Source of the DNA: Heterodontus francisci
Lineage: Eukaryota
DNA length: 64,000 bases
Reading direction: 5' to 3'
NCBI RefSeq assembly: GCF_036365525.1
Contig: NC_090399.1
Span: 66,210,862 to 66,274,861, forward strand
Position numbers and translations under genes: made by a program. Positions 477 to 41,551 of the stretch are shown here, in pieces. The notes below the pieces were generated by a model that saw only the letters and a list, made by a program, of their open reading frames with translations, made no database searches and was not told where the DNA came from. Each line of letters starts with the position of its first letter. Within the stretch, counting starts at the first letter, position 1.

Positions 477-526
477 CAACCTCCTATCCTATGTGCTTTA
501 ACTTTGCTAACCAACCTCCTGTAGAG

Positions 527-710
527 GACATTGTATGTTTTCAAGAAGGGGTTAGATATAGCTCTTGGGTTTAAAGGGATCAAAGGATATGGGGCGAAAG
601 CGGGAACAGGTTACTGAGTTGGATGATCAGCCATGATCATAATGAAAGGCAGAGCAGGCTTGAAGGGCCGAATGGCCTACTCCTGCTTCTATTTTCTACG
701 TTTCTATGTT
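527..710 (+). mobile_element. CR1 LINE 3' tail (5'-truncated), nested in an older CR1
   Basis: Near-identical to the 3' end of CR1 copies at 2103-2290(-) and 32850-32990(+); ends in TTCTACGTTTCTATGTT. Confidence 0.8.
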
Positions 711-2100
711 TTATCAAAAGCCTCCTGAAAATCCAAGTACACCACCAACTCCCCTTTATCAATTCTGTTCGTAACATCCTCAGAAAACTCCAACAGGTTC
801 GTCAAACATGATTTCCCATTCATAAATCCATGTTGACTATGCCCAATCGGATCATTGTTATCCAAGTGTCCATTTATCACATCCTTTAGGATAGATTCTA
901 ACATTTTCCCAATGACTGTGTAAGGCTAACAGGTCGGTAATTCCCTGTTTTCTCTCTCTCTCCCTTCTTAAATAGTGAGGTGACATTTGTGACCTTCCAA
1001 ACTGCAGGAACCGCTCCAGAATCTATAGAATTTTGGAAGATGATCACCAATGCATCCACTATCTCCAATCTCCATAGCGACCTCTTTCAACACTCTGGGA
1101 TGTAGAATATCAGGTCCTGGGGACTTATCAACATTCAGCCCCATAAATCTCTCCAATACAACTTTCTTACTAATACCAATTTCCTTCAATTCCTCATTCT
1201 TCCTAATACCTTGGATCTCTAATTCTGGGAGATTTCTTGTATCTTCCTCAGTGAAGACAGACACAAAGTCATCATTTAGCTTCTCTGCCATTTTTCTATT
1301 CCCCAGACTCTGTCTGTCATGGACCCACATTTGATTTAGCCAAATATTTCCTTTTTAGGTACCTGTAGGAGCTTTTACAGTCTGTTTTTATATTTTTTGC
1401 TAGTTTACATTCATATTCTATTCTCCCTTTCTTTATCAGATCCATTGCCCTCCTTTGCTGTATTCTAAAATCCTCAGGTTTACTACTACGTATTTATTTT
1501 TTATTTATTTATAGATACAGCACTGAAACAGGCCCTTCGGCCCATTGAGTCTGTGCCGACCAACAACCACCCATTTATACTAATCCTGCATTAACCCCAT
1601 ATTCCCTACCACATCCCCACCATTCTCCTATCACCTACCTACACTAGGGGAAACTTACAATGGCCAATTTACCTATCAACCTGCAAGTCTTTAGCTGTGG
1701 GAGGAAACCGGAGCACCCGGAGGAAACCCACACGGTCACAAGGAGAACTTACAAACTCCACACAGGCAGTACCCAGAACTGAACCCAGGTCGCTGGAGCT
1801 GTGAGGCTGCAGTGCTAACCACTGCAACACTGTGCCGCCCACTGTGCTGTACTTCTGGCATCTTTATAGGCCTTTTCTTTTAATCTTATGCAATCCTTAA
1901 CATCCTTTGTTATCCAGTTGACTGCCTTAACGTTTGGGGTTTTTATGCCTTGAAGGGATGTATAGTTGCTGTAAACTATGTAATATTTCTTTAAAGACTA
2001 TCCGTTGTCTCTGTACTGTCAGACCTTTTAATGTATTTTCCCAATCCACCACAGCCAATTTGCCCATCATACGTTCATAATTTCCTTTGTTCAAATTTCA
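711..2100 (-). mobile_element. Decayed CR1 LINE ORF2 fragment (interrupted by a SINE)
   Basis: Minus ORFs with KSPGPDILHPRVLKE, SQHGFMNGKSCLTNLLEF, VYLDFQEAFDK. Confidence 0.85.
1493..1840 (-). mobile_element. HE1-type tRNA-derived V-SINE, full length
   Basis: Minus strand begins GGGCGGCACAGTG...GTGGTTAGCACT (A box), GGGTTC (B box), V-domain GGGTTTCCTCCGGGTGCTCCGGTTTCCTCCCAC, CR1-like tail and (TAAA)n end. Confidence 0.85.
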
Positions 2101-2102
2101 CA

Positions 2103-4640
2103 CATAGAAACATAGAAAATAGAAGCAGGAGTAGGCCATTCGGCCCTTCAAGCCTGCTTCTCCATTCATTATGATCATGGCTGATCATCCAACTCAGTAA
2201 CCTGTTCCCGCTTTCCCCCCATATCCTTTGATCCCTTTAAACCCAAGAGCTATATCTAACTCCTTCTTGAAAACATACAATGTTTTGACCTCAACTGCTT
2301 TCTGTGGTAGCGAATTCCACAGGCTCACCACTCTCTGGGTGAAGAAATTTCTCCTCATCTCAATCCTGAAACCTTTACCCCATATCCTTGGACTATGACC
2401 CCTGGTTCTGGACTCCCCCATCATCGGGAACATCCTTCCTGCATCTAACCTGTCAAGCCCTGTTAGAATTTTATAGGTTTCTCTGAGATCCCCCCCCCCC
2501 CCACTCTTCTGAACTCCAGCGAATATAAACCTAATCAACTCAATCTCTCCTCATATGTCAGTCCTGCCATCCCAGGAATCAGTCTGGTAAACCTTCGCTG
2601 CACTCCCTCTATAGCAAGAACATCCTTCTTCAGATAAGGAGACCAAAACTGCACACAATATTCCAGGTGTGGCCTCACCAAGGCCCTGTATAATTGCAGC
2701 AAGACATCCCTGCTCCTGTACTCGAATCCTCTCGCTATGAAGGCCAACATACCATTTGCCTTTTTTACCGCTTGTTGCACCTGCATGCTTACCTTCAGCG
2801 ACTGGTGTACGAGAACACCCAGGTCTCGTTGCATATTCCCATCTCTCAGTTTATAGCCGCTCAGATAATAATCTGCCTTCCTGTTTTTGCTACCAAAGTG
2901 GATAACCTCACATTTATCCACATTATAGTGCATCTGTCATGCATTTGCCCACTCACTCAACTTGTCCAAATCACCCTGAAGCCTCTCTGCATCCTCCTCA
3001 CAACTCACCCTCCCACCCAGTTTTGTGTCATCTGCAAATTTGGAGATATTACATTTAGTTCCCTCATCTAAATCATTAATATATATTGTAAATAGCTGGG
3101 GTCCTCGCACCGATCCCTGTGGTACCCCACTAGTCACTGCCTGACATTCGGAAAAAGACCCATTTATCCCTCCTCTTTGTTTCCTGTCTGCCAACCAATG
3201 TTCTATCCATTGCAATACACTACCCCCAATCCCATGCATTTTAACTTTACACGCTAATCTCTCATGTGGGACTTTGTCGAAAGCCTTTTGAAAGTCCAAA
3301 TAAACCACATCCACTGGCTCCCCCTCATCAACTCTCCTAGTTACATCCTCGAAGAATTCTCGTAGATTTGTCAAGCATGATTTCCCTTTCGTAAATCCAT
3401 GCTGACTCTGTCCGATTCTACCACTGTTCTCCAAGTGCTCTGTTATAAAATCTTTGATAATGGACTCTAGAATTTTCCCCTCAGTCTGGCTTCAGATTGA
3501 ACTTTCTCACTTTCAAACATAATGTAAAATTTTATCATATTATGGTCACTCATCCCTAAAGGTTCTTTTACAACAAGATTATTAATTAGCCCTTTTTCAT
3601 TACATAATACTCGATCTAAAATAGCCTCTTCTCTTGTCGGTTCCTTAACATTTTGCTCTAGAAAACCATCCCGAACACACTCCAGAAACTTGTCCTCCAC
3701 AGTATTAGTGCTCATTAGATTTACCCAGTCTACATGCAGATTGAAGTCACCCATGATTATTTTATTACCCATGCCACATGCTTCTCTAATCTCCTGATTA
3801 ATACCATGTCCCACACTACCACTACAGTTTGGTGGCCTATAAACAACTCCTACCAGTGTTAGCTGCCCCTTGCTGTTTCCTAGCTCCACCCAAACTGATT
3901 CCACATTTTGTTCTTCTGAACTGAGATCCTCCCTTATTAATATACTGATTCCATTCCTTATTATCAGTGCAACACCACCTCCTTTTCCTTTTTTTCTGTC
4001 CTTCCTAAATGTTGAATATCCTTGAATATTCAGTTCCCAGTTTTGGTCACCCTGTAGCCACATTTCTGTTATGGTAATTAGATCATACCTATTTACCTCT
4101 ATTTGGGCCTTTAAATCATCTCCCTTGTTGCAAATGCTGTGTGCATTCAGTTAGAGTGCCCTTAACCTTGTCTTCTTGACATTATTCTGCATTCTAAGCC
4201 TAGTTGTTGCTTGCTTTTGTTTCGCCTGCTTTCAAATGTCACTTGCTACTTTTCTACCTCATATTGCTTCCTTCTAATTTGAGCTTCCCCTCAGGTTCCC
4301 ATCCCCCTGACAAGCTAGTTTAAACCCTCCCCAACAGCACTAGCAAATATCTCTGCGAGGATGTTAGTTCCGGTCCTGTTAAGGTGTAGCCCGTCCATCT
4401 TGTACAGGTCCCACCTGCCCCAGAACAGGTCCCAATGCCTCAGAAATCAGATGCCCTCCATCCTGCACCAATTCTCCAGTCACGTGTTCAATCGATCAAT
4501 TCTCCTATTCCTATGCTTATAGCACATGGCTGTGGGAGTAATCCTGAGATTACTGCTCTTGAAGTCCTGTTTTTTAATTTCCTTCCTAACTCCCTAAAAT
4601 CTGCTTTCAGGACCTCATCCATCTTCCTACCTATTGCAGG
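2103..4640 (-). mobile_element. CR1 LINE: RT and 3' tail (2103-3480) joined to an APE endonuclease region (3480-4640)
   Basis: ORFs with [28 protein letters not shown]; APE motifs GVVYRPP, MGDFN, SDHN; (TTCTATG)-type tail at 2103; stops and frameshifts present. Confidence 0.9.
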
Positions 4641-4805
4641 ACCTCATCCCTATTCCTGTACATATTATGGCACGTTGTTCCCTTAGGGTCAATCCAGCGA
4701 GGACGTTCACAGGGTTTGTGGGAGGACCTGATGAAGGTCAACCCAGAGAGTGCCAAAGGACTGGAGGCTCCACGCACATTGACAAAGCTGACTGGTGCCC
4801 TGCAC

Positions 4806-5020
4806 TGTAGTATAATGCACATGAGCTATTGCTGGGTAGATTATGTATATAGACCATAAACATCATCACAGGATGTGATGTCACGAGTCTGAACCTCGTG
4901 TTGCTCAGTGATAATGAGTGATAATTAGAGATAAGACCCCTGTTCATAAACTGCTGTTACTTTGACCCAAAGTATGCTATTAACAGGACAATGCCCAGTA
5001 TAGTACATGGTGGCAGCAGT
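4806..5020 (+). mobile_element. Probable 5' LTR (~202 bp) and primer-binding site of a Ty3/Gypsy element
   Basis: TGTAGTATA...TATAGTACA imperfect terminal inverted repeat (4806-5007) followed immediately by TGGTGGCAGCAG, a tRNA-3'-complementary PBS; gag/pol remnants lie downstream. Confidence 0.65.
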
Positions 5021-5349
5021 AAAAATGAATTTTGTAGGGTAATGATAGAAGATGTCAAAAACATTGGAGAGAAGCATGGAAAAGTCGATACCCTTACTGG
5101 AGAGCTTCGAGCCAGTGGCTGGGCCCAGCCAGGCCGAGGTATGGCTGAGGTAGATGTGAAGATTTGATAGGTACCGTTCTGCATTGGATTTGTCAGCACA
5201 ACTAGACAGGGAACAGAAACAGAAACATAGAAAATAGGAGCAGGAGCAGGCCATTCGGCCCTTCGAACCTGCTCTACCTTTCAAAAAAGATCATGGCTGA
5301 TCGTCTAATTCAGTACCCTGTTCCCGCTTTCTCCCCATATCCCTTTGGC

Positions 5350-5690
5350 ATTAAGAAATATATCTATCTCACAGGTCAGTGTTTTATTTTACACCATGGG
5401 AGACAGTGCAGATGACATTTTAACTACCCTGGGGATCGGTGAGCTTGTTTAATCGATAGATTTCTGAATACTAATGACATCGAGGGATATGGTGATAGTG
5501 GGGAAAAATGCTGTAGAGGCAGATGATCAGCCATGATCTGATTGAATTGTGGAGCAGGCTCGATGGGCCGAATGGCCTATTCCTGCTCCGATTTCCTATT
5601 ATTCTCTAAAGCCTTGGACAGATACTTTAGATCAAAAAGAATGTTTTCGTAGAAAGGCTGAAATTCAACAAACGCATTCAAAAGCAAGAT
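5350..5690 (+). mobile_element. Gypsy gag remnants split by a CR1 tail
   Basis: Manual translation QVSVLFYTMGDSADDILTTLG (~5352) and KALDRYF..KNVFVERLKFNKRIQ (~5608), continuing at ~7762 as Q..GESIVTFINDL. Confidence 0.55.
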
Positions 5691-5832
5691 TCTACAGCAC
5701 AGTGTAGGCATGTCCCCACACACCAAATCTAGAGCCCCCTGGTTATCTAGGAGCATCAAGGATAAGATAAAGCAGAAAGAAAAGCTTATGACAATCACAA
5801 AAAACTTTAGAAAGCCTAGAGAAGTATAGAAA

Positions 5833-6138
5833 CCGAGTCTGTGCCAATCATCAACCACCCATTTATACTAATCCTATACTAATTCCATATTCCTACCACA
5901 TCCCCACCTGTCCCTATATTTCCCTACCACCTACCTATACTAGGGGTAATTTATAATGGCCAATTTACCTATCAACCTGCAAGTCTTTGGCATGTGGGAG
6001 GAAACCGGAGCACCCGGAGGAAACACACGCAGACACAGGGAGAACTTGCAAACTCCACACAGACAGTACCCGGAATTGAACCCAGGTCGCCGGAGCTGTG
6101 AGGCTGCGGTGCTAACCACTGCGCCACTGTGCCGCCCC
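5833..6138 (-). mobile_element. HE1-type V-SINE
   Basis: Highly similar to 1493-1840; tRNA head GGGGCGGCACAGTGGCGCAGTGGTTAGC and V-domain present. Confidence 0.85.
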
Positions 6139-6149
6139 TATGTACCATT

Positions 6150-7760
6150 AGCAAATGAGAGAGGAAGTACGAGAGGGTCTGACATCTTTGAAAGTGGATA
6201 AATCACGGTTTGCATCCCGGGTTGTTAAAGGAAGCCAGGGAGGAAATAGTGGGTGCACTTGGGATCATCTTCAAATCCTCACTGGATACAGGAGAGGTAC
6301 CAGAGGATTGGAGGTCTGCAAACGTTGTACTATTGTTTAAAAAGGGTGCGAGGGATAGGCCAAATAATTATAGGCCGGTCAGTCCAACATCGGTGGTGGG
6401 TAAATTATTAGAATCTATTCTGAGAGACAGAATAAATTATCACTTAGAAAGGTACAGATTGATCAGGGATAGTCAGCATGGATTTGTTAAGGGAAGGTCA
6501 TGTCTTACTAACTTGATTGAGTTTTTTGAGGAAGTAACCAGGAGGATTGATAAGGGCAGTGCAGTGGATGTAGTCTACATGGATTTTAGTAAGGCATTTG
6601 ACAAGGTCCCGCATGGCAGACTGGTCAGTAAAATGAAAGCCCATGGGATACAGGGGAATGTGGAAGGTTGGATCCAGAATTGGCTCAGGGTACAGGAAAC
6701 AAAGGGTAGTAGTTGACGGATGTTTTTGTGAATGGAAAGCTCTTTCCAGTGGCGTTCCACAGGGATCAGGGTTGAGTCCTGTGCTGTTTGTGATATATAT
6801 TAATGATTTGGACTTAAATGTGGGAGGCATGATTGGGAAATTTGCAGATGACATAAAAATTGGCCGTGTAGTTAATAGTAGTTAATAATCACTCCAGAAT
6901 GATATCAATGGTTTAGTTGAGTGGGCAGAAAAGAGGTAAATGGAATTCAATCAAGAGAAGTGTGAGGTATTGCATTTGGGGAGGGCAAACAAAGCAAGGG
7001 AATACACAATAAAAGAGAGAATATTGAGAGGGGTAGAAGAAGTGAGACTCCTTGGAGTGCATGTCCACAGGTCCCTGAAGGTGGCAGGACATGTAGATAG
7101 AGTGGTGAAGAAGGCAAATGGAATTCTTTCCTTTATTGGCCAAGGTATAGAATAGAAAAGCAGGGATGTGATGCTGGAACTGTATAAAACACTGGTTAAG
7201 CCACAGCTGGAGTATTGTGTACAGTTCTGGTCACCACCTTACAGGAAGGACGTAATTGCTTTGGAGAGAGTACAGAGGAGATTTACAAGAATGGTACCAG
7301 GGCTTGAAAGTTGCAGCTATGAGGAAAGATTGGATAGGCGAGAGTTGTTTTCCTTAGAACAGAGGAGGCTGAGGGGTGACTTAATTCAGGTGTACAAAAT
7401 TATGAGGAGCCGAGATAGAGTAGACAGGAAGGACCTGTTTCCCCTAGCAGAGAGGTCAATTACCAGGGGGCACAGATTTAAGGTGAATGGTTGAAGGATT
7501 AGAGGGGACATGAGGAAAACCTTTTTCACTCAGAGGGTGCTGGGTATCTGGAATTCACTGCCTGGATCAGTGGTGGAGGCAGAAACCCTCAACTCATTTA
7601 AAAGGTACCTGGACATGTTCCTGAAATGCTGTAACCTGCAAAGCTACGGACCAGGTGTTGGAAGGTGGGATTAAATTAGGTGGTTGTTTTTGTTTTGGCC
7701 AGTACAGACACAAGGGGCTGAATGGTCTCCTTCTGTACCATAATTTTTTTATGGTTCTAT
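6150..7760 (+). mobile_element. 5'-truncated CR1 LINE (RT and 3' tail) inserted in the Gypsy gag
   Basis: [51 protein letters not shown]; ends TTCTATG. Confidence 0.9.
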
Positions 7761-7761
7761 G

Positions 7762-9548
7762 CATGCAAAAATGTGGTGAAAGTATCGTTACATTTATTAA
7801 TGATCTATATAAAATAGCTGAGCATTGCGAGTTTGTGAGCTTGCGAGATGAACTGATTCAGGTCAGAATAGGAGTCAAGGTTATAGTGGAAGCGCTGTCA
7901 GACCAGGTTCAGTTGAAAGAGGATTTCACTTTGCAAAAGGCCATTCTGTTGAGCAGGCAGAGGTCTTAAAATTTAATCCACTACTGGTTCAGTGGGGATC
8001 GGGGTTTCCAACCTCGAAAATTATGGAATCAGTTGAGTTTGTGGGGAAGACAGAGAATAATGGCGGCAAAAAGCTCGAGAGGCAGGGAAGATACCCACAG
8101 GCAGAAGCATTGAATTGCAGTAAGTGTGACTGGGAGCGGCATCGGCGGGAAAGTTGTCCAGTCCAGGAAGCTGAATGTTTCTGCTGCAAGAAAGTGGGGC
8201 ACTTTCAGCAGGTCAGTCGCAACAGGAAACAAATGCTGCAGACAAGTTTAAAAAATGAACTAAAAGAAAATCAAATAATCAATACTCACATCCTTGGGGA
8301 AATTCAAGAGAAAAATGAAATTGTGGAAAGCAGAAATCTTAGTGGGAAAAATAAAACCAACTTCAAGTTAGATACAGGAGCAGCAGTTTCTGTCCAATCT
8401 GGCAAAACACCATGGCTGAGGGACAATTGGCTTAAGATAACCAATAAGAAATTATACAGGCCGGGAGGGATTCAATTAAGGGTTTTAGGAGACATACAAA
8501 TAACGTTAACGCACAAAAATAACACCATTCTGGAAACCCTATATGTTATAAAGAACCAAGCCTGTTCACTACTCAGTAAGAAAACTTGTTTAGCCTTACA
8601 GCTGTAATGCAGGGTGGAAGAGATCAAAGGACAAGAGAAACAGCTCAGTGATTTTAGAGCTGAATTGCCCAAATTATTTGAAGGTTTGGGAAAATTAAAA
8701 ACAGTCTATCACATTACTCGCAACAAAGAGACAGAACCATTATGTTTGTTCACACCGAGAAAGGTCCCACACCCACTCCTGGAAAAGTTAAAGAAGGAAA
8801 TTGATGCCCTGCTAAACCAAGGAGTTATTTCTGCAATAACTAAACCCACATTGGTGCACCGGGATGTTCCAGTAAAGAAACCAAATGGGTCTATTAGGAT
8901 TTATGTGGACCTTACCAACTCAATAAAACTATAGAGAGAGAGAGTCACCCGATGGCATTAGTTGATGTCAGCCTTGCCAAATTGGAAAAAAGCTCCATAT
9001 TCACTAAACTGCATGCAAATAGTGGATTTTGGTAGTTGCGTTTAGACAATGAGTCTAAATTGTTAACTACCTTCATCACACCCTTCAGAAGAGTCTGTTT
9101 CAACAGATTACCAGTCAGTATTGCATCAGCACCAGAGATATTCCAGCAGACAATGTCAAATTTCCTGGAAGGCTTAGAAGGGATCATCTGCCACATGGAT
9201 GATGTTCTGATTCATGGAGCAATCGATGAAGAACACGACATAAGGGTAAGGGCTGAATTATACAGATTATAAGAGGCTGGTCTCACATTTCCTTGGCCAC
9301 ATAATTGATGGATCCGGCATCAGGATAGATCCACAGAGGACGAAGACAATACAAGATTTCCCAGAGCCAAAGAACATAACGGATTCACAGTGATTCATGG
9401 GTATGGTTAACCAGGTAGGGAAATTCCTACCAAATCTAACCACTATTAATGAGCCTTTACAACAACTGCTAAAGAGAAGCAATGGCTGATTCTGGGGTGA
9501 CTGCCGGAAAGATTCTTTTGAGAAGATCAGGAAATGCTAACTTCATCA
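7762..9548 (+). mobile_element. Decayed Ty3/Gypsy gag-pol (zinc knuckles, aspartic protease, RT)
   Basis: CFCCKKVGHF knuckle, FKLDTGAAVS protease, PVKKPNGSIRIYVD, TTFITPF, SAPEIFQ, CHMDDVLI; many stops and frameshifts. Confidence 0.9.
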
Positions 9549-10625
9549 GAACAAAGAACAGTACAGCACAGGAACAGGCCATTCGGCCCTCCAAGCCTGC
9601 GCCGATCTTGATGCCTGCCTAAACTAAAACCTTCTGCACTTCCGGGGACCGTATCCCTCTATTCCCATCCTATTCATGTATTTGTCAAGATGCCTCTTAA
9701 ACATTGCTATCGTATCTGCTTCCACCACCTCCCCTGGCAGCAAGTTCCAGGCACTCACCACCCTCTGTGTAACGAACTTGCCTCACACATCCCCTCTAAA
9801 CTTTGCCCCTCGCACCTTAAACCTATGTCCCCTAGTAACTGACTCTTCCACCCTGGGAAAAATCTTCTGACTATCCACTCTGTCCATGCCGCTCATAACT
9901 TTGTAAACCTCTATCATGTCGCCCCTCCACCTCCGTCGTTCCAGTGAAAACAATCCGAGTTTATCCAACCTCTCCTCATAGCTAATGCCCTCCAGAGCAG
10001 GCAACATCCTGGTAAACCTCTTCTGTACCCTCTCCAAAGCCTCCACGTCCTTCTGGTAGTGTGGCAACCAGAATTGCACGCAATATTCTAAGTATGGCCT
10101 AACTAAAGTTCTGTACAGCTGCAGCATGACTTGCCAATTTTTATACTCTATGCCCCGACCAATGAAGGCAAGCATGCCGTATGCCTTCTTGACTACCTTA
10201 TCCACCTGCGTTGACACTTTCAGTGACCTGTGGACCTATACGCCCAGATCTCTCCGCCTGTCAATACTCCTAAGTGTTCTGCCATTTACTGTATACTTCC
10301 CACCTGCATTAGACCTTCCAAAATGCATTGCCTCACATTTGTCCGGATTAAACTCCATCTGCCATTTCTCCGCCCAAGTCTCCAACCGATCTATATCCTG
10401 CTGTATCCTCTGACAATCCTCATCATTATCCGCAACTCCACCAACCTTTGTATCATCCGCAAACTTACTAATCAGACCAGATATATTTTCCTCCAAATCA
10501 TTTACATATATTACAAACAGCAAAGGTCCCAGCACTGATCCCTGCAGAACACCACTAGTCACAGCCCTCCATTCAGAAAAACACCCTTCCACTGCTCCCC
10601 TCTGTCTTCTATGACCGAACCAGAG
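9549..10625 (-). mobile_element. 5'-truncated CR1 LINE
   Basis: [29 protein letters not shown] on the minus strand; (GTTCTTT) tail at 9549. Confidence 0.9.
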
Positions 10626-11720
10626 CATGGATAGATGATTGGCTGGCTGGCAGAAAACAGACAGTATGCATAAATGGGTCCTTTTCTGAGTGGCAGGATG
10701 TGACAAGTGGAGTCTTGCAGGAGTCTGTGCTGGGGCCTTAACTTTTTACAATTTATATCAATGACTTCGATGAGGGGAGCGATGGCATGGTAACTAAATT
10801 TTCAGATGACACAAAGATAGGTAGGAAGTATGTTGTGAAGAGGATATAAGGAGGTTGCAGACCAATACAGATAGGTTGAGTGAGTGGGCAAACATCAGGC
10901 AGATGGAGTATAATGTGGGGAAATGTGAAGTTGTTCACTTTGGCAGGAAGAATAAAAAAGCAGAGTATTACTTAAACAGAGAACTACTGCAGAATTCCGA
11001 GGTGCAGAGAGATCTAGATGTTCTCGTGCATGAGTCACAAAAAGTTAGTATATAGGTACAGCAAGTGATAAAGAAGGTTCATGGAATGCTATCATTTATT
11101 ATGAGAGAAATTGAAAATAAAAGTAAGGATGTTATGCTTCAGTTAAACGGGGTATTGGTGAGGCCACATCTTGAATACTGTGTGCAGTTTTGGTCTCCAT
11201 ATTTAAGGAAGGATATAAATGCATAGGAGGCGGTTCAGAGGAGGTTTACTGGGTTGATACCTGGAATGAGCAGGTTGTCTTATGAAGAAAGGTTGGACTG
11301 GGGTGTTTTCACTGGAGTTTAGAAGAGTGAGGGGAGACTTGAAGTTTATAAGATCCTGAACGATCTTGACAAAGTGGATGTGGAAAGGATGTTTCTTCTT
11401 GTAGGTGAGTCCAGAACTAGGGGGCACTGTTTTAAAATTAGGGGTTGCCCTTTTAGGACAGAGATGAGGAGAATTTATTTTTCTCATAGAGGATTGTGCG
11501 ACTTTGGAACTCTCTGCCTCAGAAGGTGATGGAGGTGAGGTCATTTAATATTTTTAAGGCAAAGGTAGATAGATTCTTGTTAGGCAAGGTTATCGGGGTA
11601 GATGGGAATGTGGAATTCGAGACACAAACAGATAAGCCATGATCTTATTGAATGGTGGAGGAGGCTCGAGGGGCTGAATGGCCTACTTCTGCTCTTAATT
11701 CTTATGTATGTTCATCTGTT
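10626..11720 (+). mobile_element. Decayed 5'-truncated CR1 LINE
   Basis: QMEYNVGKCEVVHFG and [11 protein letters not shown] homology; typical 3' hairpin/tail near 11660-11710. Confidence 0.85.
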
Positions 11721-11874
11721 TGTATGAAATTGTATCGGGACTTGAAGGAAATAAACATGCAGGGCTTTGGGGATAGAATGAGGGAATGGGACTGACTGGA
11801 TTGCTGTACAGAGAGCTGGCATAGGCTGCATGGGCAGAATGGCCTCCTTCATATGACTCTATGCCCGTATGCCT

Positions 11875-12037
11875 CTAAGACGCACCTGAAAACCTACCTC
11901 ATTGACTGAGCTTTTGGTCGTCTTCCCTAATATCGCCTTATGTGGCTCAGTGTAATATTTTGTTTTATAACTCACCTGCGACGTGTCTTGGCACATTTTA
12001 TTATGGTAAAGGTGCTATATAAATACAAGTTGTTGGT
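11875..12037 (+). mobile_element. L2-type LINE/SINE 3' tail fragment
   Basis: CTGAAAACCTACCTC...GGTGCTATATAAATACAAGTTGTTG resembles L2-clade 3' ends. Confidence 0.45.
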
Positions 12038-12530
12038 GGGTATTTTACATTCAGTACTAGACCTACTCCCACCTGTAATGTACAGGTTCCGTGCTGAACT
12101 GAGTGTTTAAAGTCCAGGGAAAAACACTCAAAAATCACATTAAAGATTCTCAAACCTGTCATTGTGTTCAACTGGAATATTTAAATCCAGAAATATATCT
12201 CATGTCCAATAAAATTTCTAGCCACCAATGGGAACTCAGTGTTTTCCACATCATCAGTATCCGGGGAAAATCTCTCTGTGCCGGTTACCTTCAGCTTTCT
12301 AATTCAAACACTATTTGTCCAAAAGGAAACTCCAACAGTTTATGGGGATCACATTTCAAACAGAACTTTTCCCAACATTACAAAATTACTGATAACACCC
12401 AAAAAACCAAAATTTATAATTTTAACAAACACATTTAATTTCAGATTGCTTTTGTATTCTTAGTTTCCTTTCATTTGTTCTCATATTCATCAACAGATCA
12501 ACAAAGCAGCAAACATTCCCAGGACAGGTA

Positions 12531-13326
12531 ATCTGGCAGTGAGGGGACACCCCGATGGAGGTCTCTCTACGCGGGAGTCTTCCCCCTTTACATCGGGGAC
12601 CTGGGGTGGAGGGTGTTGCGCAGAGCAGTCCCGTGCAATAGACTTTTAAGTAGGTTCACGGACTCCCAGGCCGCCTGTCCTTTCTGCGGCCTGGTCGAGT
12701 CTGTGTTTCACATATATATGGAGTGTGCGAGGTTGCAGCCCCTGTTTCAGTATTTGAAGGGGCTGCTCCTCAAGTTCTGGCTGCACTTCAGTCCCACGCT
12801 CCTGATCTTTGGGCACCCGGTGAGGGGGTGCATGGGATGGGAGGAGGATCTCCTCGTCGGTCTGCTCCTGGGCCTGGCCAAGGTGGCAATTCACAGGTCC
12901 AGGCTGCAGGCCATCTGGGGGTCCGTCCTCCCTGATTGCCTGCCCCTCTTCCGCGGTTACGTTCGCGCCCGGGTGTCCCTGGAGAAGGAGTATGCGGTGT
13001 CCGGCGGTACGGTTGAGGCCTTCCATGACCGGTGGGCACCGCAGGGACAGGAGTGCATCGTCGATGCCGAAAATGGCATTTAATTTGAGTTTTTGCTTTA
13101 TTCATCTGTTTTTAATAAAGTTATTTTTTTTTAAAATGTATATAAAGGGGGCCTGAGGAATAAAGGCCCCCTCGACATAAAATATATAAAAAGGGCCTGG
13201 AGTATAAAGGTCACCTAGAAAAAAATGGGGTTAGAAAAAGAAAGGGGGCCTGAGGAATAAAGGCCCCCTCGACATAAAATATATAAAAGAGACCTGGGGT
13301 ATAAAGGCCACCTTATATTTAAAAAA
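12531..13326 (+). mobile_element. Tx1-clade non-LTR retrotransposon, 5'-truncated copy (copy 0)
   Basis: ORF 12613-13083 matches the ORF2 C-terminus of the downstream copies (CPFCGLVESVFHIYMEC zinc finger); 3' UTR hairpins and A-tail. Confidence 0.92.
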
Positions 13327-13809
13327 CGGGGTTAGATACAGAGTAAAGCTCCCTCTACACAGTCCCCATCAAATACTCCCAGGGCAGGTACAGCTCAGGG
13401 TTAGAGACAGAGTAAAGCTCCCTCTACACTGTCCTCACCAAACACTCCCAAGCCAGGTACAGCATGGGGTTAGATACAGAATAAAACTCCCTCTACACTG
13501 TCCCCATCAAATACTCCCAGGGCAGGTACAGCTCAGGGTTAGAGACAGAGTAAAGCTCCCTCTACACTGTCCTCACCAAACACTCCCAAGCCAGGTACAG
13601 CACGGGGTTAGATACAGAATAAAGCTCCCTCTACACTGTCCCCATCAAATACTCCCAGGGCAGGTGCAGCTCAGGGTAAGAGACAGAGTAAATCTCTCTC
13701 TACACTGTCCTCACCAAACACTCCCAAGCCAGGTACAGCACGGGGTTAGATACAGAATAAAGCTCCCTCTACACTGTCCCCGTCAAACACTCCCAGGACA
13801 GGTACAGCA
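13327..13809 (+). repeat. 69-bp minisatellite, exactly 7 units (Tx1 target array)
   Basis: Unit CGGGGTTAGATACAGAGTAAAGCTCCCTCTACACTGTCCCCATCAAACACTCCCAGGACAGGTACAGCA; units start at 13327, 13396, 13465, 13534, 13603, 13672, 13741. Confidence 0.95.
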
Positions 13810-14487
13810 CTGGGATTGGCTGCTGTCTGATTTGGGAGCCTGAGTGTTGAGAGCCTCAACGAGGTGCAGCTGAGAGTGCTGGTGGCAGTTGGAGGTTGCA
13901 GACGTGGAGAGAGGAGCTGCACTGAGCAAGGGAGAGCAGCTACCAACAAGCAGAGGAAAACTCCAACAACAGTCTCCATTAAAGAGAAGAAAGGGACATT
14001 TTTTGGAAACAAGGCTTTGTCTGGAGGTGGGTGCTGAACACCAGTAATTTACTTTGGACTGTTGGGGGAGGAACAAGTGGCTGGAACAACAAGGGGTGGG
14101 GCTGCCAATTCAGCAGGAATCTGTGCTGCTGCAAAACCACACAGGGAAGCTCCCTCCCCACCCCAATTGCCAAGCCTGGGTCAGCTGAAGCTGCCCAGCT
14201 AAACAGACGGAAGGGGATAGATAGTGCCTGGGCAGCTTCAGCTGACCCAGGTGAAGACGACTCCCCCAACCAGAAGACCAACTTCAAAGACTGTTTGTTT
14301 TAAGTGTACTGTGAGCACCACCTCCAGAAAGCAAGTCATCCCTTCCAGCCTGCCTTTGCCTCTCCTCTCTTACCTCAGCCTCTCCACTAACCTGTTGTTT
14401 GTTTGTTTGTCTTTTCAAATTTTTCTGTGAGTCGCTGTTATTTAGTGTGCAAGTCCACAATTTGGGGTGGGTTTAGCTCTTAGACCC

Positions 14488-16530
14488 ATGGCAAGCCCTT
14501 CATCACCGGTGGCGGGGCCCTCTACTACCTACGCAGCTGCAGCTTCTGTGGCTGCCCACGTGGCCCCGTCACCCTTTAAATTATTGACATGCAGCCATGG
14601 GGTGAAGAGCTATCCCCACCCCAACATGTCTATTGAGGCCTGCGTTAAGGCAATGGCCGTGGTTGTCGGCCCCTCGGCCATTGTTGCGGCCTCAAAGATG
14701 TATGGGAAGGCTGTGTTCTTTCTGAAGACCGAGCGGGCGGTGTCCCTGGCACTGAGTAAAGGGCTCACTGTGGGGGGGACCTTCCTGCCAGTGGACCCTC
14801 TGGGGGCCACTGCGCATCGGATAATGTTGTCCAATGTCCCACCCTTCATTCCCAGTGAGCTCCTCCTCCCCCACCTGCACCATCTAGGGGAGGTGAGGTC
14901 GGGGATCACCCCAGTCCGGCTTGGTCTTCGGGAGCACAGCCTCCAACATGTCTACTCCTTCCGCCGCCAGTTATTTATGCAGCTGGCGCGGGAGGAGGAC
15001 ACGGAGGGCCAATTTAATGTGGAGTTCCAAGGGACGGCCTACCGCGTCATTTGGACCTCGGACGGGGCGCGGTGCCACGTCTGCAAGGGGGTGGGGCATG
15101 TTCGTAAGAACTGCCCCAACCTCCCGGCCGCCAGCTCCACCTCGGCGGCCCAGAGTGGTTCCACAGCACCTCCTCCCACTCCCCCCGCACATCCAACAGA
15201 CACCGCTCAGTAGGTTCCGGAGGCTGTGGTTTTCACAGCCTCTGGCGGGGAGGGGAGCGTCCGTCCGAGCGGAAGGAAGACGCGGGGAAAAAAGAAACAT
15301 CGTGAGGCGCGTCCCCTGGACACTTTGACTCAACCCGAGCCTGAGCTCAGCCCAAAGCCCATTCCCATGGAATCCACCTGTCCCAGGGCTGGGCTCAGGC
15401 CCAGGGTGACTATAAAGGGAAAAAAGGGTGCGGAGGCGGAGGCCTCTGATGACATGGAGGTCTCTGAGTCTCCGCGCCCAAGTGCGAAAAAGAGGAGAAG
15501 GCACCCCTCCACAGAAATAACACAGGGCCCTGAGGTGCAGGGCCCATCTGTTGGAGGGGAGCTGCCTCCTGTTTCTGGTCCTCAGGTGCCCCCTACCGCC
15601 ACCACCAAGGCTACAAAGTCCGGGCAGGTGCTCCCTATTCCTCAGGATGGAGGGGAGGGGATGGCCCCGGTACATGAGGCCCCTCCTGAAGGAGTAAGTG
15701 GGGCCCTGCTTGTGGTGGGGGAGCCTGGGGAAGCTGCCCATTCCGCCACTGCTACTGGGTCGGGTGTCCTGAATGAAGGGGAGGGCGAGGCCCCAGAGGG
15801 TCGGGCCTCCCAGCCGGAGTCCACCACCAACCAGGAGACACCCGACCCAGTTATAACTGAGAATGCTGCCCCATCTGCTGGGCCTGTGGGTGCTGGCGGA
15901 GCGGGAGATCGCCTCCTCCCTCCGCCTCCAGTCTCGGCTCCGGCTGGTTTCCCGGAGTCGGGAACTTCTGTCTCCCCTGGACCACACATTGCCCTGGGGA
16001 CGGAGGTGGAGGGGGTTCCTGAACCGCTGGTGCCTACAGGCTCCAGTTTCACAATAGAACCCAGAGAGGACTCCTCCGCCATCGATCCTGGGGGTGGGAT
16101 CGTGACGGAGGCGGGACCAGCTGGCGCGGCCGGGACGTCCGCCCCACAGTGTGTGGTGGATGTGTCGGCCGCTGGCGGTGACGACCCGGAGGAGGATGGG
16201 GATTCGGTGCGGGGCACGGAGGATGATCTTGATTCCATCGCCAGTGAGGTGGTGGAGTCCCTCGTGCCTCCCACCGAATCTCCTCTCATCCCCACGGCGG
16301 AACTCCGGGATTTCCTCGCGGCTTGCAGAGGTTGCCGCAATAAAGTTCAGCTGGCCCTCGACCGTTGGTCGAATCTGGTGCTGATCATCCAGTCCATCCG
16401 TGCCGCCCTTAAGATAGCGGGCAAGCACGCGGACGTGAAACTGGTTGAGAGGCGCCGTTTTAATGTGTTCCTCAATGGGTTGCTGGGGGAGTGGAGGGCC
16501 AGGTGCACTTCCACTCCCTCCTCACAGTGA
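14488..16530 (+). pseudogene. Tx1 ORF1 (nucleic-acid-binding protein, ~680 aa) with one nonsense codon
   Basis: MASPS start, ASKMYGKAVFFL, LSNVPPFI, CHVCKGVGHVRKNC; TAG at 15211-15213 where copy C has TCG; same frame continues to 16530. Confidence 0.88.
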
Positions 16531-16562
16531 GGTGTTTGTGACGGGTTTTAATTACCTTTGAC

Positions 16563-19500
16563 ATGAAGATAACCATAGCCAGCCTCAACATCAACGGCAG
16601 CAGAGGGGCTCACCGCAGATTTCACAATCTCTCAGTCCTCAGGGAAGGGAGATACGCGGTGAGCTTTCTGCAGGAAACCCACACCGTTCCGGGAGACGAA
16701 GCCACCTGGCTCCTGGAGTGGCAGTGGGGTGGCTATCTTGTTGGCCCCGACTTTTCAGCCGGAGATCTTGGGGGTCAAGGAGCTAGTGCCGGGCCGCTTG
16801 CTCCACCTCGCCGTTCGCCTGGGTAGCGTGCCGCTCCACTTTGTGAACGTGTACGCGCCCAGGCCTGGCGCGTTGCAAGCGCGCTTCTTTGAAGAAGTGT
16901 CCGCTCTCTTGAGCTCCATCGATAGCGGCGAGTGCATCATCCTCGGGGGGGATTTTAACTGCACCCTCGAGGTGGGGGATCGCTCCAGTCCCCAGCGCGG
17001 CCAAGCGTCGGTGGAGAAGTTGAGGGGACTGATCAGCTCCCTTAACTTGGTGGACGTCTGGCAGAATCTCCATCCCGACTCCAGCGCCTTCACGTGGAGG
17101 TCTGGAGGAGGGGGGTCGCGAATCGACCGCCTCTACATTTCGCAGGCGTACGTCTCCCGCGTTTCGGCGGCCTCCATGCGGCTGGTGCCGTGCTCGGACC
17201 ACCACCTGGTGTGGGCGGAGTTTACTCCGCTCCGCACGCGGGCAGGGTCCGCGTACTGGCACTTTAACAACCGGCTGCTGGAGGACGTGCGATTTCGGGA
17301 CTCGTTCTGTCGATTCTGGGCCGACTGGAGAAGGAAGCAGGGGGGCTTCCCCTCCTTGAGGCTATGGTGGGATGTGGGCAAGACTCACATCCGCGTCTTC
17401 TGTCAGGAGTACGCGAAGGGGTCGACCAAGAGGCGGGTAGCCGAGATCGGGCGCCTTGAGAGGGAGGTGCTTGACTTGGAGTCCCGCCTCGGTCATGCCG
17501 TCGTGGACCCGGCTCTGTGGCAGGCGTACAAAGAGAAGAAGGGCGCGCTGAGGGACCTGCAGCTCATAGGGTCCCGAGGCGCGTACGTGAGGTCGCGGAT
17601 CCAGATCCTGGAAGATTTGGACCGCGCCTCTCCCTTCTTCTACTCGCTGGAAAAATGGCGGGGGGTCCGTAAGCAGCTCATCGAGCTGCTGGCCGACGAC
17701 GGATCCTCCATCACGGATCCGGAGGGAATGGGCCTCCTGGTCCGGACGTATTACAGTGCGTTGTTCTCTCCGGATCCGTCCAGCGAGGATGCGCGCAGAG
17801 TTTTGTGGGAGGACCTGCCGCAGGTCAGCCCGGAGGGCGCCGAAGGATTGGTGGCTCCGCTCACGTTGGCGGAGCTGACTGGCGCCCTCCACCAGCTCTC
17901 GTGGGGCAAATCCCCAGGGCTGGATGGGTTGACCCTGGAGTTCCTCAGGGCGTTCTGGGACGTCCTGGGGGACGATTACGCGCGGGTCCTGGGGGAAAGC
18001 CTGGCGACCGGGGAGATGCCCCTCTCGTGGCGCAGGGCGGTCATCGTCCTGCTGCCGAAGAGGGGCGATCTCCGCCTGCTTAAAAACTGGCGTCCGGTCT
18101 CCCTCCTCAGCACGGATTATAAGATCTTTGCCCGGGCTATGTCTACCCGCCTGTGCTCCGTGCTGGCCCACATGATCCACCCCGACCAGTCCTACACAGT
18201 CCCGGGCCGGTCCATCCAGGACAACATCCACCTGGTCCGGGACCTGATCCATCTTTCCCAGAGGACTGGTCAGTCGGTCGCCTTTCTCTCCCTCGATCAG
18301 GAGAAGGCGTTCGACAGGGTGGATCACGATTACCTTTTCGGGACTCTGCGCGCTTTCGGACTCGGGCCGCATTTCGTGGCCCGGGTCCGACTTTTATACG
18401 CCGCCGCAGAGTGTCTAGTCAAAGTTAACGGGTCCTTGACGGCGCCCCTTCGCTTTGGGAGAGGAGTGCGTCAGGGGTGCCCCATGTCCGGCCAATTGTA
18501 TACCATCTGCGTGGAGCCCTTCCTGTGCCTGCTTCGCAGGAGGTTGACGGGATTGGCTCTGCGCGAGCCGGCCATGCGGGTCGTCCTCTCGGCTTACGCC
18601 GACGACGTGCTCCTCGCAATCACAGATCCCGTTGACTTGCGGAGGATGCGCGACTGCCAGCAGACCTTTTCTGCCGCGTCCTCCGCGAGGATCAATTGGG
18701 AGAAATGTTCCGGACTCCTGGTTGGTCAGTGGCGGGTGGACTCCCTGCCGGAGGAGATGACACCTTTTGCGTGGAGAACCACGCACCTCCTCTATCTGGG
18801 AGTCCACCTTAGCCCCGCTGAGGAAGCCTGGCCGGCAAACTGGCAGGAGTTGGAGGCGAAAGTCACCGCTCGGCTGGGGCGCTGGACAGGACTGCTCCGA
18901 GTGCTTTCCTACAGGGGCCGAGTGTTGGTCATAAACCAACTGGTGGCCTCCATGCTGTGGTACCGGTTGGTCACTTTGGCCCCGCCCCCTGTATTTGCCA
19001 CCAAGATCCGGAAGAAACTCATCGATTTCTTCTGGGGCAAGAGGAAACACTGGGTCTCTGCCGCGGTCCTGAGTCTCCCGATCGAGGAGGGCGGTCAGTC
19101 GCTGGTGTGCGTCCGCACCCAGGCTGCGACTCTCCGCCTTCGGACCCTGCAGAGATACCTGTACGTCGAGCGTCCTCCCAGATGGTGTGCGCTGGCGACG
19201 TATTTTTTCCGCCAGTGTCACTGCCTTCAAGACGACACGCAGCTCCCGGTGGAGTCCGTTAGCCGCGCCTCTCTGAGGGAGTTGCCTGTCTTTTACCGGG
19301 ATCTTTTCCGAGTCTGGAACATGGTCGCCTCCAGTCAGGGCGCTCCCCCGCCGGCGGAGGAGAGCGCCTCGGCTGTCCGGGCGGCCGACTCCGGGGACGG
19401 TCCGGCGGGCGGAGGAGTAGCCGAAACCCCCGGGACGCCCCTCACTGCGGGTGGCGAGGGGGCTCGGGAGTGCGGAGCGATCCCGGCCGAGCTGACCCCC

Positions 19501-20262
19501 GCTCGGCCGGAACTGCTCATCGGACCCAGGCCCCGAAACCCTCCTCGGGAGCCAGTCCCGCACAACCCGAGCCGCCTCTCGGAAATGCCCTCCGTGCCAT
19601 TCCAATCGGCGCGGAGGGGTTTCCTGTACGGGCTGCTCCTGCACACTCTCCACTTCCTCGCCCTCGTCAGCCGGCCGGACACGCCCTGGCGGTCCGCGTT
19701 GCCATCTGGCGGCGAGGGGAAACCTCGATGGAGGTCTCTCTCCGCGGGAGTCTTCCCCCTTTACATCGGGGACCTGGGGTGGAGGGTGCTGCACAGAGCA
19801 GTCCCGTGCAATAGGCTTTTAAGTAGGTTCACGGACTCCCAGGCCACCTGTACTTTCTGCGGCCTGGACGAGTCCGTGTTCCACGTTTATACGGAGTGTG
19901 CGAGGTTGCAGCCCCTATTTGAGTATCTGAAGGGGCTGCTCCTCAAATTCTGGCTGCACTTCAGTCCCACGCTCCTGATCTTTGGGCACTCGGTGCGGAG
20001 GGGCTTGGGCCGGGAGGAGGATCTCCTCGTCGGTCTGGTCCTGGGCCTGGCCAAGGTTGCAATTCACAGGTCCAGGTTGCGGGCCGTCGGGGGGTCCGTC
20101 CTCCCCGATTGCCTGCCCCTCTTCCGCGGTTACGTTCGCGCCCGGGTGTCCCTGGAAAAGGAGCATGCGGTGTCTGCCGGTACGCTTGAGGCCTTCCGCG
20201 ACCGGTGGGCAACGCAGGGACTGGAGTGCATAGTCGACGCCGAGAATGGCATTTTAATTTGA
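16563..20262 (+). pseudogene. Tx1 ORF2 (APE endonuclease, reverse transcriptase, CCHC finger), frameshifted by a 38-bp deletion
   Basis: SLNING, FLQETH, GGDFN, RIDR, SDH; KNWRPVSLL, LDQEKAFDRV, GVRQGCP, AYADD; CTFC..H..C; 38 nt missing at ~16724 relative to copy B. Confidence 0.92.
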
Positions 20263-20400
20263 GTTTTTTGTTTATTTATCTGTTTTTAATAGTGATTTTA
20301 AAAATATAAGTGTGTATATAAAGGGGGCCTGAGGAATAAAGGCCCCCTCGACATACAAAATATATATAATGGGGGCCTGAGGAATAAAGGCCCCCTCGAC

Positions 20401-20638
20401 AAAAAAAAAACGGGGGTTCGATACAGAGTAAAGCTCCCTCTGCACTGTCCCCATCAAACACTCCCAAAAAAAAAGAAAAAAAAACGGGATTACATACAGA
20501 GGAAAGCTCCCTCCACACAAAAAAAAACGGGGTTTGATACAGAGTAAAGCTCCCTCCACAAAAAAAAAAACGGGGTTTGATACAGAGTAAAGCTCCCTCG
20601 ACACTGTCCCATTAAACACTCCCAGGACAGGTACAGCA
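20401..20638 (+). repeat. Stack of poly(A) tracts alternating with truncated and full 69-bp target units
   Basis: Units start at 20411, 20485, 20528 and 20571, each directly after an A-run; only the last is complete. Confidence 0.9.
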
Positions 20639-21346
20639 CAGGGATTGGCTGGTCAATTTGGAGCACTTCCTGCCAGCAATCAGGGGGAGCAGCTGCACCT
20701 GTGTTGCTGCAACTGGAGAGGAGAGAGGAGACTGGAGTTACTGCAGAGAGGTGACTGTAGACAGCTGTATTTACTGTGGAACTGTTGCACTTTTTCAAGA
20801 CTAAGAAGACCTGAGAGTCATTTTGGAGAGGTGGGTGTTGGAACACCAGAGAACTGTTGGTTGTTTGGACTGTTGGGGGAGGGAGAAGGCACCGGAAGAT
20901 CCAGGGGTGGGGCTGCCAAATTCTATAGGGAGCCCCTGTACGAGCTCTTGTGTTTATCTGCCATCCTGCACAAAAGGGGCTCCCTCCCCACCCCCAACTG
21001 TGTGGCTCGGGACGGCTGGAGCTGCCCGGCTGAAGAAAATCCTTATACAACAACAGAAAAGGGAGAGAACCGGGCGGCTCTAACCGACCCGGGCGAAGAA
21101 CCCTCCCCTAACTGGAAGAGTGGACTGTCGACTCTGCAGGAAGGTGCTCCAACCACCAATTGAAGTGTAACATCCTTGCAGCTGTTCTCTCTCTTCCATC
21201 ACTCGGCCACCTATCCTCTCCTCTCCTTGTCCTTTTCAGCCCTATCCTCCTCTATTCCCATCCCCCCCTCCCCCATCATATTGCTTGTGTTAAAGAAAAC
21301 TGTCGTGTGTTTTGTTTCTTGGGGGTGGGCGTAGCTCTGCGACCCC

Positions 21347-23378
21347 ATGGCAAGCCCCTCTTTGCCGGTGGCGGGGCCTTCCCGTTCATATGCTGCTGCG
21401 GCTGCACCTGTTGCCCCGTCACCGTTTGCTTTATTAACATCGAAGCATGGGGTCAAGAGCTATGTCCACCCAAACATGACTATAGAGGCATGCATGAAAG
21501 CAATGGCCGAGGTTGTCGGCCCTTCGGCCATTGTTGCAGCCTCTAAAATGTACGGGAAGGCAGTGTTTTTCCTGAAGACCGAGCGGGCGGTGTCCCTGGC
21601 TCTGAGCAAGGGGCTCACCGTGGGCGGGACCTTTCTGCCAGTGGACCCCCTGGAGGCCACTGCGCAAAGGCTCATTCTATCCAATGTCCCGCCCTTCATT
21701 CCTGGTGAGCTCCTCCTTCCCCACCTGCACCATCTGGGGGAGGTAAAGACGGGGCTCACCCCAGTCCCGCTCAGTCTTCGGGAGAACAGCCTCCGACACG
21801 TGTACTCCTTCCGCCGCCAGTTATTCATGCAGCTGGCGCGGGTGGAGGTGACAGAGGGCCACTTTAATATAGAATTCCAGGGGACGGCCTACCGCGTCTT
21901 CTGGACCTTGGACGGGGTGCGGTGCCATGTCTGTAAGGGGGTGGGGCATGTTCGTAAGAACTGCCCCAACCTCCCGGCTGCCAACTCCAACTTGGCGGCC
22001 CAGGTTGGCGACGCTGCACCTCCTCCCACCCCCCCCTACACCTCCACCAGATACCATTCAGTCGGTACCGGAGGCTGTGGTTTTCACGGCCTCCGGCAGG
22101 GAGGGGGGTGACCGTCCAAGTGGAAGGAAGGCGCGGAGGAGAAATAAACATCGAGAGGCGCGTCCCCTGGACACCGTGAGACTACCCGAGTCTGAGATCA
22201 GCACAAAGCCCGATCTCGGGAAGTCAACTTGCCCCAGGGCTGGGCTCAGGGCCAGGGTGAATAAAAAAAAGGAGAGTGTGGAGGTGGAGGCCTCTGATGA
22301 TATGGAGGTCTCTGAGCCTCCGCACACAACTGGGAAAAAGAGGAGAAGGCACCCCTCCACAGAGGTAACAAGGGGCCCTGAGGCGCAGGGCCCATCTGTT
22401 GGAGGGGAGCTGTCTCCTGTTTCGGGTCCCCAGGCTTCCCCTACCGCCACCACCAAGGCTGCAAAGTCCGGGCAGGAGCACTCTATTCCTCAGGATGGAG
22501 GGGAGGGGAAGGCCCCGGTACTTGAGGCCCCTCCTGAAGGAGTAAGTGGGGCCCTGCTTGTGGTGGGGGAGCCTGGGGACTCCGCCCATTCTGCCACTGC
22601 TACTGGGTCGGGTGCTCTGAATGAAGGGGAGGGCGAGGCCCCAGAGGGTCGGGCCTCCCAGCCGGAGTCCACCACCAACCAGGAGACACCCGACCCAGTT
22701 ATAACTGAGAATGCTGCCCCATCTGCTGGGCCTGTGGGTGCTGGCGGAGCGGGAGATAGCCTCCTCCCTCTGCCTCCAGTCTCGGCTCCGGCTGGTTTCC
22801 CGGAGTCCGGAACTTCTGTCTCCCCTGGACCACACATTGCCCTGGGGACGGAGGTGGAGGGGGTTCCTGAACCGCTGGTGCCTACAGGCTCCAGTTTCAC
22901 AATAGAACCCAGAGAGGACTCCTCCGCCATCGATCCTGGGGGTGGGATCGTGACAGAGGCGGGACCAGCTGGCGCGGCCGGGACGTCCGCCCCACAGTGT
23001 GTGGTGGATGTGTCGGCCGCTGGCGGTGACGACCCGGAGGAGGATGGGGATTCGGTGCGGGGCACGGAGGATGATCTTGATTCCATCACCAGTGAGGTGG
23101 TGGAGTCCCTCGTGCCTCCCACCGAATCACCTCTCATCCCCACGGCGGAACTCCGGGATTTCCTCGCGGCTTACAGGGGTTGCCGCAATAAACTACAGCT
23201 GGCCCTCGACCGTTGGTCGAATCTGGCGCTGATCATAGAGTCCGTCCGTGCCGCTCTTAAGATAGCGGGCAAGCGTGCGGACGTGAAACTGATTGAGAGG
23301 CGCCGTTTTAATGTGTTCCTCAATGGGTTGCTGGGGGAGTGGAGGGCCAGGTGCACTTCCACTCCCTCCTCACAGTGA
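21347..23378 (+). pseudogene. Tx1 ORF1, frameshifted near a C-run (~22030)
   Basis: ORFs 21347-22111 and 21927-23378 together match copy A ORF1 in different frames. Confidence 0.88.
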
Positions 23379-23410
23379 GGTGTTTGTGTCGGGTTTTAAG
23401 TACCTTTGAC

Positions 23411-27121: not shown

Positions 27122-27258
27122 GTTTTTTGTTTATTTATCTGGTTTTAATAAAGTTATTTTAAAAATATAAGTGTGTATATAAAGGGGGCCTGAGGAATAA
27201 AGGCCCCCCTCAACATAAAAAATATATAAAAGGGGCCTGGGGTATAAAGGTCACCTTG

Positions 27259-38952: not shown

Positions 38953-38999
38953 TCAGGCATTGGCAGAGGAGTTTGATGAGGATTCCCCCCTATCAGAAG
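38953..38999 (-). CDS. MHC class I heavy chain, last coding (cytoplasmic) exon
   Basis: Acceptor TTAACAG|; (T)SDRGESSSNSSANA*; G|GTATGA donor 1 nt after the stop (exon 38952-38999, 48 nt). Confidence 0.88.
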
Positions 39000-41550: not shown

Positions 41551-41551
41551 T

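Follow-up and report, generated by a model that had tools for sequence, protein, structure and literature searches.

A head-to-tail LINE array

The window, by which we mean the whole 64,000-nucleotide stretch of Heterodontus francisci DNA analysed here, contains four copies of one LINE family in a head-to-tail array (12531–30460). Copy 1 (12531–13225, forward strand) is a 5′-truncated Tx1-clade LINE that keeps the last 183 ORF2 codons, with the stop codon at 13081–13083, a 3′ untranslated region (UTR) with two hairpins, and A7. Copy 2 (13811–20410, forward strand) is full length, with ORF1 at 14488–16530 interrupted by one stop and an ORF2 that begins at the ATG at 16563, carries an early frameshifting deletion and ends at 20262. 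Copy 3 (20640–27268, forward strand) is also full length, with broken ORFs, and matches copy 2 at 71% in the 5′ UTR and at 97.7% in ORF2. Copy 4 (27398–30460, forward strand) consists of a 5′ part, which runs to 30244, and a more divergent 3′ piece of ORF2; at 30244/30245 it leaps from early ORF2 to this piece, which is 81–83% like copies 1–3. The break appears to be either a 3.2-kb internal deletion (across two copies) or a chimera. At about 30460, copy 4 is cut off by another repeat ahead of a CR1-like reverse transcriptase (RT), and the right end of the array lies outside the window. Copies 1–3 end in A7–A10, and copy 4 is without a 3′ end. No copy has an intact ORF pair (copies 2–4 contain stops or frameshifts and copy 1 is truncated), and none of the four qualifies as an active element, for which both ORFs must be intact.

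The 5′ UTRs of copies 2–4 are 69–80% alike and their ORF1 sequences 89–93%, yet all three copies start in an identical phase. This divergence indicates separate insertions rather than tandem duplication. The 5′ end of the element (CTGGGATTGG) resembles the right half of the target described below (CGGGGTTAG), and this target-like end is conserved at 13810–13820, 20639–20649 and 27398–27408 despite the divergence of the UTRs. Copy 1, which matches copy 2 at 86% on the amino acid level, has 37 private changes in 553 nt, compared with 8 and 7 in copies 2 and 3; by this count it is the oldest copy. Reads mostly disagree with copy 1 at at least 26 positions, taken from the best-supported rows.

ORF2 has Exo_endo_phos and RVT_1 matches above cut-off, the zf-RVT match of copy 1 (E = 1.7e-4) falls under the curated cut-off, and a CCHC motif was read in ORF1. 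The closest named full-length relative is the Tx1 ORF2 of Xenopus laevis (P0004), which matches at 49% over 98% and at 64.7% in the RT; a horn shark gene model shares 93% identity across 29% of the query. In an RT tree of 22 rows (20 of 120 listed homologues used, one dropped for short overlap, no L1 rows), copies 2 and 3 group with a Hemitrygon (stingray) row with support of 100/98, and these three with Tx1L, turtle and sturgeon rows with 100/99. Domains and tree together indicate a Tx1-clade non-LTR retrotransposon of the Tx1L lineage. The family is abundant in the shark, as read depth on ORF2 in run X8 shows high copy number. DNA pattern scans of viral contigs, metagenomes and prokaryote genomes gave no match, and none of 282 matches to an ORF2 C-terminus pattern in metagenomes was confirmed.

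The 69-bp unit and the insertion phase

Copy 2 is preceded by seven 69-bp units (13327–13810, forward strand), which the unit table and TRF periods of 69 and 138 resolve into three 138-bp A/B higher-order pairs and a last unit, U7. Three of the unit–unit junctions are intact and empty (13464/5, 13602/3 and 13740/1). A single whole unit (20571–20639, forward strand) forms both the right flank of copy 2 and the left flank of copy 3. The unit starts with GGGTTAG, a permutation of the vertebrate telomere repeat, and the 138-bp higher-order structure spans 13327–13740. Three more tandem arrays occur in the window (46840–48203, 72 bp; 48514–50465, 47 bp; 51113–64000, 30 bp), and the 72-bp and 69-bp units have 11 nt in common. 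An isolated 146-nt Tx1 ORF2 fragment at 4660–4805, 76% to copies 2 and 3, has no adjoining unit sequence.

Copies 2 and 3 start directly after a complete unit end (CAGCAC). At 9 of 11 poly(A) ends, the poly(A) is followed by (C/T)GGG in unit phase; of the remaining two, judged by eye, one runs into the start of copy 4 (27398) and the other into a piece of 3′ UTR (13240). The 5′ starts and the phase of the poly(A) ends together place insertion at CAGCA/CGGGGTTAG and imply that no more than one base is duplicated. All four copies in the window contact the unit at this phase and are flanked by target, at one locus. There is one clear case of a 5′-truncated copy, and it adjoins the target (copy 1, 1/1); A9 at 27389–27397 is a possible second. 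The common phase of the poly(A) ends is stronger evidence for targeting than the junction of copy 1. A GGACAGG variant of the unit end is found at 4/4 ends that touch an element, including that at copy 1, which has no 5′ UTR, and at 0/6 untouched ends. Because these six ends are two near-identical types present three times each, they are not independent, and the contrast is suggestive only.

In the genome, the target is most likely the 69-bp unit, and target specificity of the family throughout the genome seems likely. In a Scyliorhinus gene model, 28 residues translate the unit across an empty junction (21/28; database E = 9.5e-4), which weakly suggests that the unit is present without the element in another shark. 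The translated array matched 1 of 7,822 and 1 of 7,999 candidates among proteins; against 1.84 billion representatives it gave nine matches, among which P0122 and P0123 are unit-like and the three that were inspected are unrelated repeats. P0050, P0041 and P0123 are shark and ray gene models that incorporate either parts of Tx1 ORF2 or the translation of a 69-bp unit, and are probably annotation artefacts. An RNA-gene target (U2, U5, 5S or tRNA) was rejected because Rfam gave no match at the target, just two chance mir-6794 hits (E = 0.9), and no tRNA gene was found there.

The left junction of copy 1

Copy 1 abuts the left half of the target (12507–12530, forward strand), the end of a 69-bp unit of the GGACAGG variant that stops 5 nt before the insertion phase. 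The initial annotation had matched 12511–12530 to the unit end at 19 of 20 positions. Recomputation gave the same score, with a single mismatch to the unit ends at 13785–13804 and 20614–20633, and the match extends leftward to 20/21 from 12510 and to 21/24 from 12507, the latter score being the same for U7 and for the unit at 20571–20639. The reported lack of the final CAGCA also stands, as 5 nt are missing when measured against the 3′ junction phase; the loss is 6 nt when the 5′ junctions of the two full-length copies, 2 and 3, are the reference. The description of the upstream DNA as non-repetitive agrees with our comparison, in which the 45 nt left of the match reach 6–10/45 against the units, the background level. 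Fusion to ORF2 is direct, as had been stated, in a blunt join without microhomology or extra bases, and 12531 is the first base shared with ORF2 of the full copies, where its counterparts are 19704 and 26563. The breakpoint had been placed in mid-ORF2, but it falls at about residue 1015 of the 1,199-aa frame, close to the end of ORF2. The sequence from 12476 to 12533 reads as a pyrimidine tract, AG, 31 nt and a GT where the target remnant ends, a micro-exon-like arrangement that is probably due to chance.

Allowing up to three mismatches, the 20-mer matches nine sites in the window, every one of them within the array, and none in 100 shuffles. Of 27,980 positions outside the array (1–12480 and 30501–46000), none scores above 16/20 when compared with the seven array units in every phase, against 19 at 12511, and a score of 19/20 at one given position has a probability of about 8e-9 when all phases and strands are counted. 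These values, together with contigs that bridge the junction, already refute chance similarity or an assembly artefact, an explanation with nothing in its favour except that the match is short and to which we assign virtually no probability.

The flank on the left (12040–12506, no strand assigned) is low-copy DNA without decayed units, as judged from depth and from unit 20-mer matches of at most 13/20 outside the junction. Summed contig depth at 12080–12484 is at most 26, versus about 1e5 on the element. Contigs from runs X1 and X3 bridge the junction at 12236–12568, with 5 differences in 333, and an X4 contig does so at 12152–12570, with 11 differences and 9 gap letters. As these contigs reach 295–379 nt to the left and 38–40 nt to the right of the junction, an assembly artefact is ruled out. 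X1, X3 and X4 represent one sample, which may be the source of the window itself; the flank occurs in 4 of the 12 listed sequencing runs, from one sample and one study, with no RNA run listed. The junction is identical in both haplotype contigs. In contigs of this sample (S1), the flank also has a gap of 25 letters (X3; 12010–12265), and the X4 contig departs from the window left of 12152; these differences are a structural polymorphism adjoining the insertion.

The raw reads of X8 have a depth of 0 over 12080–12439 and of 750–1,200 on the ORF2 part, so X8 is uninformative on an empty allele. Its depth of 27 at 12485–12529 was considered as a sign of many target-fused copies and rejected, since a simple model of reads with short overhangs predicts 22–27. 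The loose end at 12531 is ordinary ORF2 continuation (518 reads of X8, among 24 of 2,541 loose-end rows listed), and no other truncated junction is readable among those 24 rows.

Unit pieces at the 3′ ends

Behind copy 2 lie three poly(A)-separated unit pieces, or tags, of 55, 34 and about 32 nt (20411–20570, forward strand), and behind copy 3 lie three of 10, 18 and 62 nt (27269–27397, forward strand), each beginning at the insertion phase. Behind copy 3, the last A9 runs straight into the start of copy 4, without an intervening unit end; at 27388–27398 a unit end, A9 and the copy 4 5′ end follow one another, and 7 nt of target are missing. One of three events would account for this contact: the element re-inserted where a site had been regenerated, the RT jumped templates, or an insertion consisting of poly(A) alone took out 7 nt of target, which would parallel copy 1. 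The 3′ end of copy 1 is composite (13226–13326, forward strand), comprising a 9-nt target tag, A5, an 80-nt 3′ UTR piece of a different variant and A6, and the two junctions of this copy may therefore stem from separate events. Its first tag is common to copy 3, in identical placement, so at least that tag was inherited through RNA.

Neighbouring tag pairs are near-identical in two cases (31/32 and 18/18) and less so in two (27/34 and 28/32). Local target-site duplication was rejected as their origin: it fits the first two pairs but fails for the other two and for the tag that copies 1 and 3 have in common. We infer that the tags are mainly stacked 3′ transductions, and they may record successive rounds of read-through and re-insertion.

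Because unit pieces are attached to the 3′ end of the element and one tag is shared, the 24 nt to the left of copy 1 might also have arrived by way of RNA. Reverse transcription would have stopped in ORF2, jumped to the 3′ end of a read-through transcript that ended inside a unit and copied 24 nt of it, and the product would have been joined to non-target DNA. Read-through tags do exist, one of them common to copies 1 and 3; the tag at 27327–27388 ends 2 nt from the end point of the copy 1 flank, the 3′ end of copy 1 resembles a join of two RNAs, and template jumping is established for R2 (PMC2912911). This route, however, requires a second truncation as well as loss of the true left flank, and no poly(A) lies between the 24 nt and ORF2. 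We consider it improbable.

Origin of the copy 1 junction

In the reading we prefer, copy 1 is probably a 5′-truncated product of target-primed reverse transcription that inserted where a small array of 69-bp units begins on the left, with loss of 5 nt of upstream target. From the junction, phase and family, which are directly observed, a probable course of events can be drawn. A Tx1L-lineage APE/RT LINE of cartilaginous fish would nick the top strand of the 69-bp minisatellite at CAGCA/CGGGGTTAG, and reverse transcription would start from the poly(A) tail of the element. As to the presumed order, copy 1 would be an older insertion into the leftmost junction of a small array, the first, partial unit of which was about 29 nt, and its reverse transcription would have halted after about 700 nt. 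The target-like 5′ end may help full-length copies to join precisely; the truncated cDNA of copy 1, without that end, would have been joined after 5 nt of upstream target had been lost. With copy 1 at the left edge of the array, the non-repeat DNA upstream merely marks that edge.

The left boundary is sharp and the 5–7% divergence of copy 1 could not have erased it, the unit match at the junction is beyond chance, one phase recurs at the poly(A) ends, and empty junctions occur in the array and in the Scyliorhinus gene model. Against an insertion of this kind, the junction lacks microhomology, unlike most truncated R2 junctions; the flank lies outside the local A/B pattern (20/24 to U1–U4 and U6, 19/24 to U5) and the 3′ end of the copy is composite; and no empty allele was seen in the flank-covering runs, all from one sample.

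Copy 1 may alternatively have been longer or full length and later have lost the stretch from the last unit bases to ORF2 codon ~1015. Copy 4 of the same array has a 3.2-kb internal deletion or is a chimera, copy 1 is the oldest copy, and a blunt join is compatible with end joining. Such a loss would have to place its left break within 6 nt of the old 5′ junction, where a chance deletion would seldom end, and its right break 5.9 kb away, and the junction is the same in both haplotype contigs; we rate this history as unlikely. Were it true, the unit would still be the target, but the junction would not be independent evidence for it and the 5-nt loss would say nothing about insertion.

It is also conceivable, though we consider it very unlikely, that copy 1 entered a solitary degenerate target in unique DNA. 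The seven-unit array would in that case have arisen through 3′ transduction and expansion, either at the time of insertion or afterwards, and a short left flank would be sufficient, as the initial annotation had suggested. Only 24 nt of unit stand on the left, in a variant that differs from the adjacent A/B units, and transduced tags reach 62 nt. Against this, none of the observed tags reaches the length of a unit, the array ends at 13810 without a poly(A), and the right end of the locus is lost, hence no matching flank is there for comparison. Under the truncated-insertion reading, the later deletion and the solitary target alike, the unit end is the genomic target.

The initial annotation had taken the junction as independent evidence that the unit is the target. 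The empty junctions and the Scyliorhinus model uphold the target itself; independence is weakened by the 3′ unit pieces, the possible later deletion and the composite 3′ end. Its suggestion that about 20 nt of left flank may be enough is unproven, as this is a single locus where the flank at insertion was probably about 29 nt (24 + 5).

Comparison with known elements

Tx1L makes a 23-bp target-site duplication, unlike the 0–1 nt duplicated here. Dewa targets a tRNA spacer, and Keno, Dewa and other RNA-gene-targeting Tx1 families differ from this element, whose target contains no U2, U5, 5S or tRNA array. The (TC)n/(TTC)n microsatellites of Kibi and Koshi are likewise not what is seen here, the TRF period being 69/138. 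R2 uses a restriction-like endonuclease. This endonuclease class is treated in PMC4640811.

With Tx1L the element shares the two-ORF layout, the APE-RT-zinc-finger arrangement, the well-supported clade (100/99) and sequence-specific insertion into a repeat, the last as described for Tx1L in PMC1950540. The conserved APE motifs align with those of Tx1L, and endonuclease activity is predicted. The betaB5–betaB6 loop, a specificity element of the Tx1L endonuclease (PMC1950540), has 7 residues here and 11 in Tx1L, 4 fewer, and the target is a 69-bp minisatellite, whereas that of Tx1L is the transposon Tx1D. By target and by loop length, the element is thus not Tx1L.

Tx1 elements are described as target-specific in PMC3747384. 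Other target-specific Tx1 families include Keno, Kibi, Koshi and Tx1-Mar. In Kojima 2015 (PMC4494074), many Tx1 families are reported to prefer a target, satellites are one target class (Fig. 3 legend), target site truncation is described, and 5′-truncated copies serve as a test of independence from hitch-hiking; a family counts as target-specific there if the target is found in >20% of flanks. The horn shark element would resemble such families in its repeat target, its 5′-truncated copy at the target and its target truncation. As in Drosophila R1 and R2, the 3′ junction is fixed and the 5′ junction variable, although R1 and R2 belong to other clades and target rDNA. PMC2718515 reports that truncated R2 copies can carry upstream target deletions, that most truncated R2 junctions have 1–5 nt of microhomology, and that R1 forms tandem arrays by re-insertion at the 5′ junction, some of its transcripts carrying upstream target. 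By analogy, the element would work like a target-specific Tx1 element of R1 style.

PMC2912911 deals with template jumping and with the changes to target sites seen where L1 copies are truncated; PMC6530143 and PMC7265360 deal with read-through and 3′ transduction. As in L1 3′ transduction, read-through downstream gains a new poly(A) and the flank is carried to the next site (PMC7265360). Unlike in L1, the flank carried here is always the right half of the target, so the tags stack in register.

Implications

Target-specific LINEs are known to leave truncated copies with target deletions, to form tandem arrays and to use satellites as targets, and the junction is the expected behaviour of such an element; its value is that it helps to define the target and nick phase of the family. 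In the open literature we found no paper on a shark Tx1 family with this 69-bp target, and 'Tx1' does not occur in two elasmobranch genome papers. The family and its target thus seem to be undescribed, although Repbase or Dfam may already catalogue the family. A vertebrate APE endonuclease with an apparently new specificity, and with a loop shorter than that of Tx1L, would be useful for work on how LINEs choose their targets.

More speculatively, and with a clear leaning against it on present evidence, this might be a shark and ray Tx1 lineage that makes its own landing sites: its 5′ end, by mimicking the right half of the target, would allow head-to-tail stacking, and read-through unit pieces would seed new arrays at short look-alike sites such as 12507–12530. 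If so, the stacked tags would log the chain of earlier insertions of each copy, and the element would be a main agent that spreads the 69-bp repeat through elasmobranch genomes. If the element does spread the minisatellite, it would also connect a transposon with those parts of shark chromosomes that are rich in tandem repeats.
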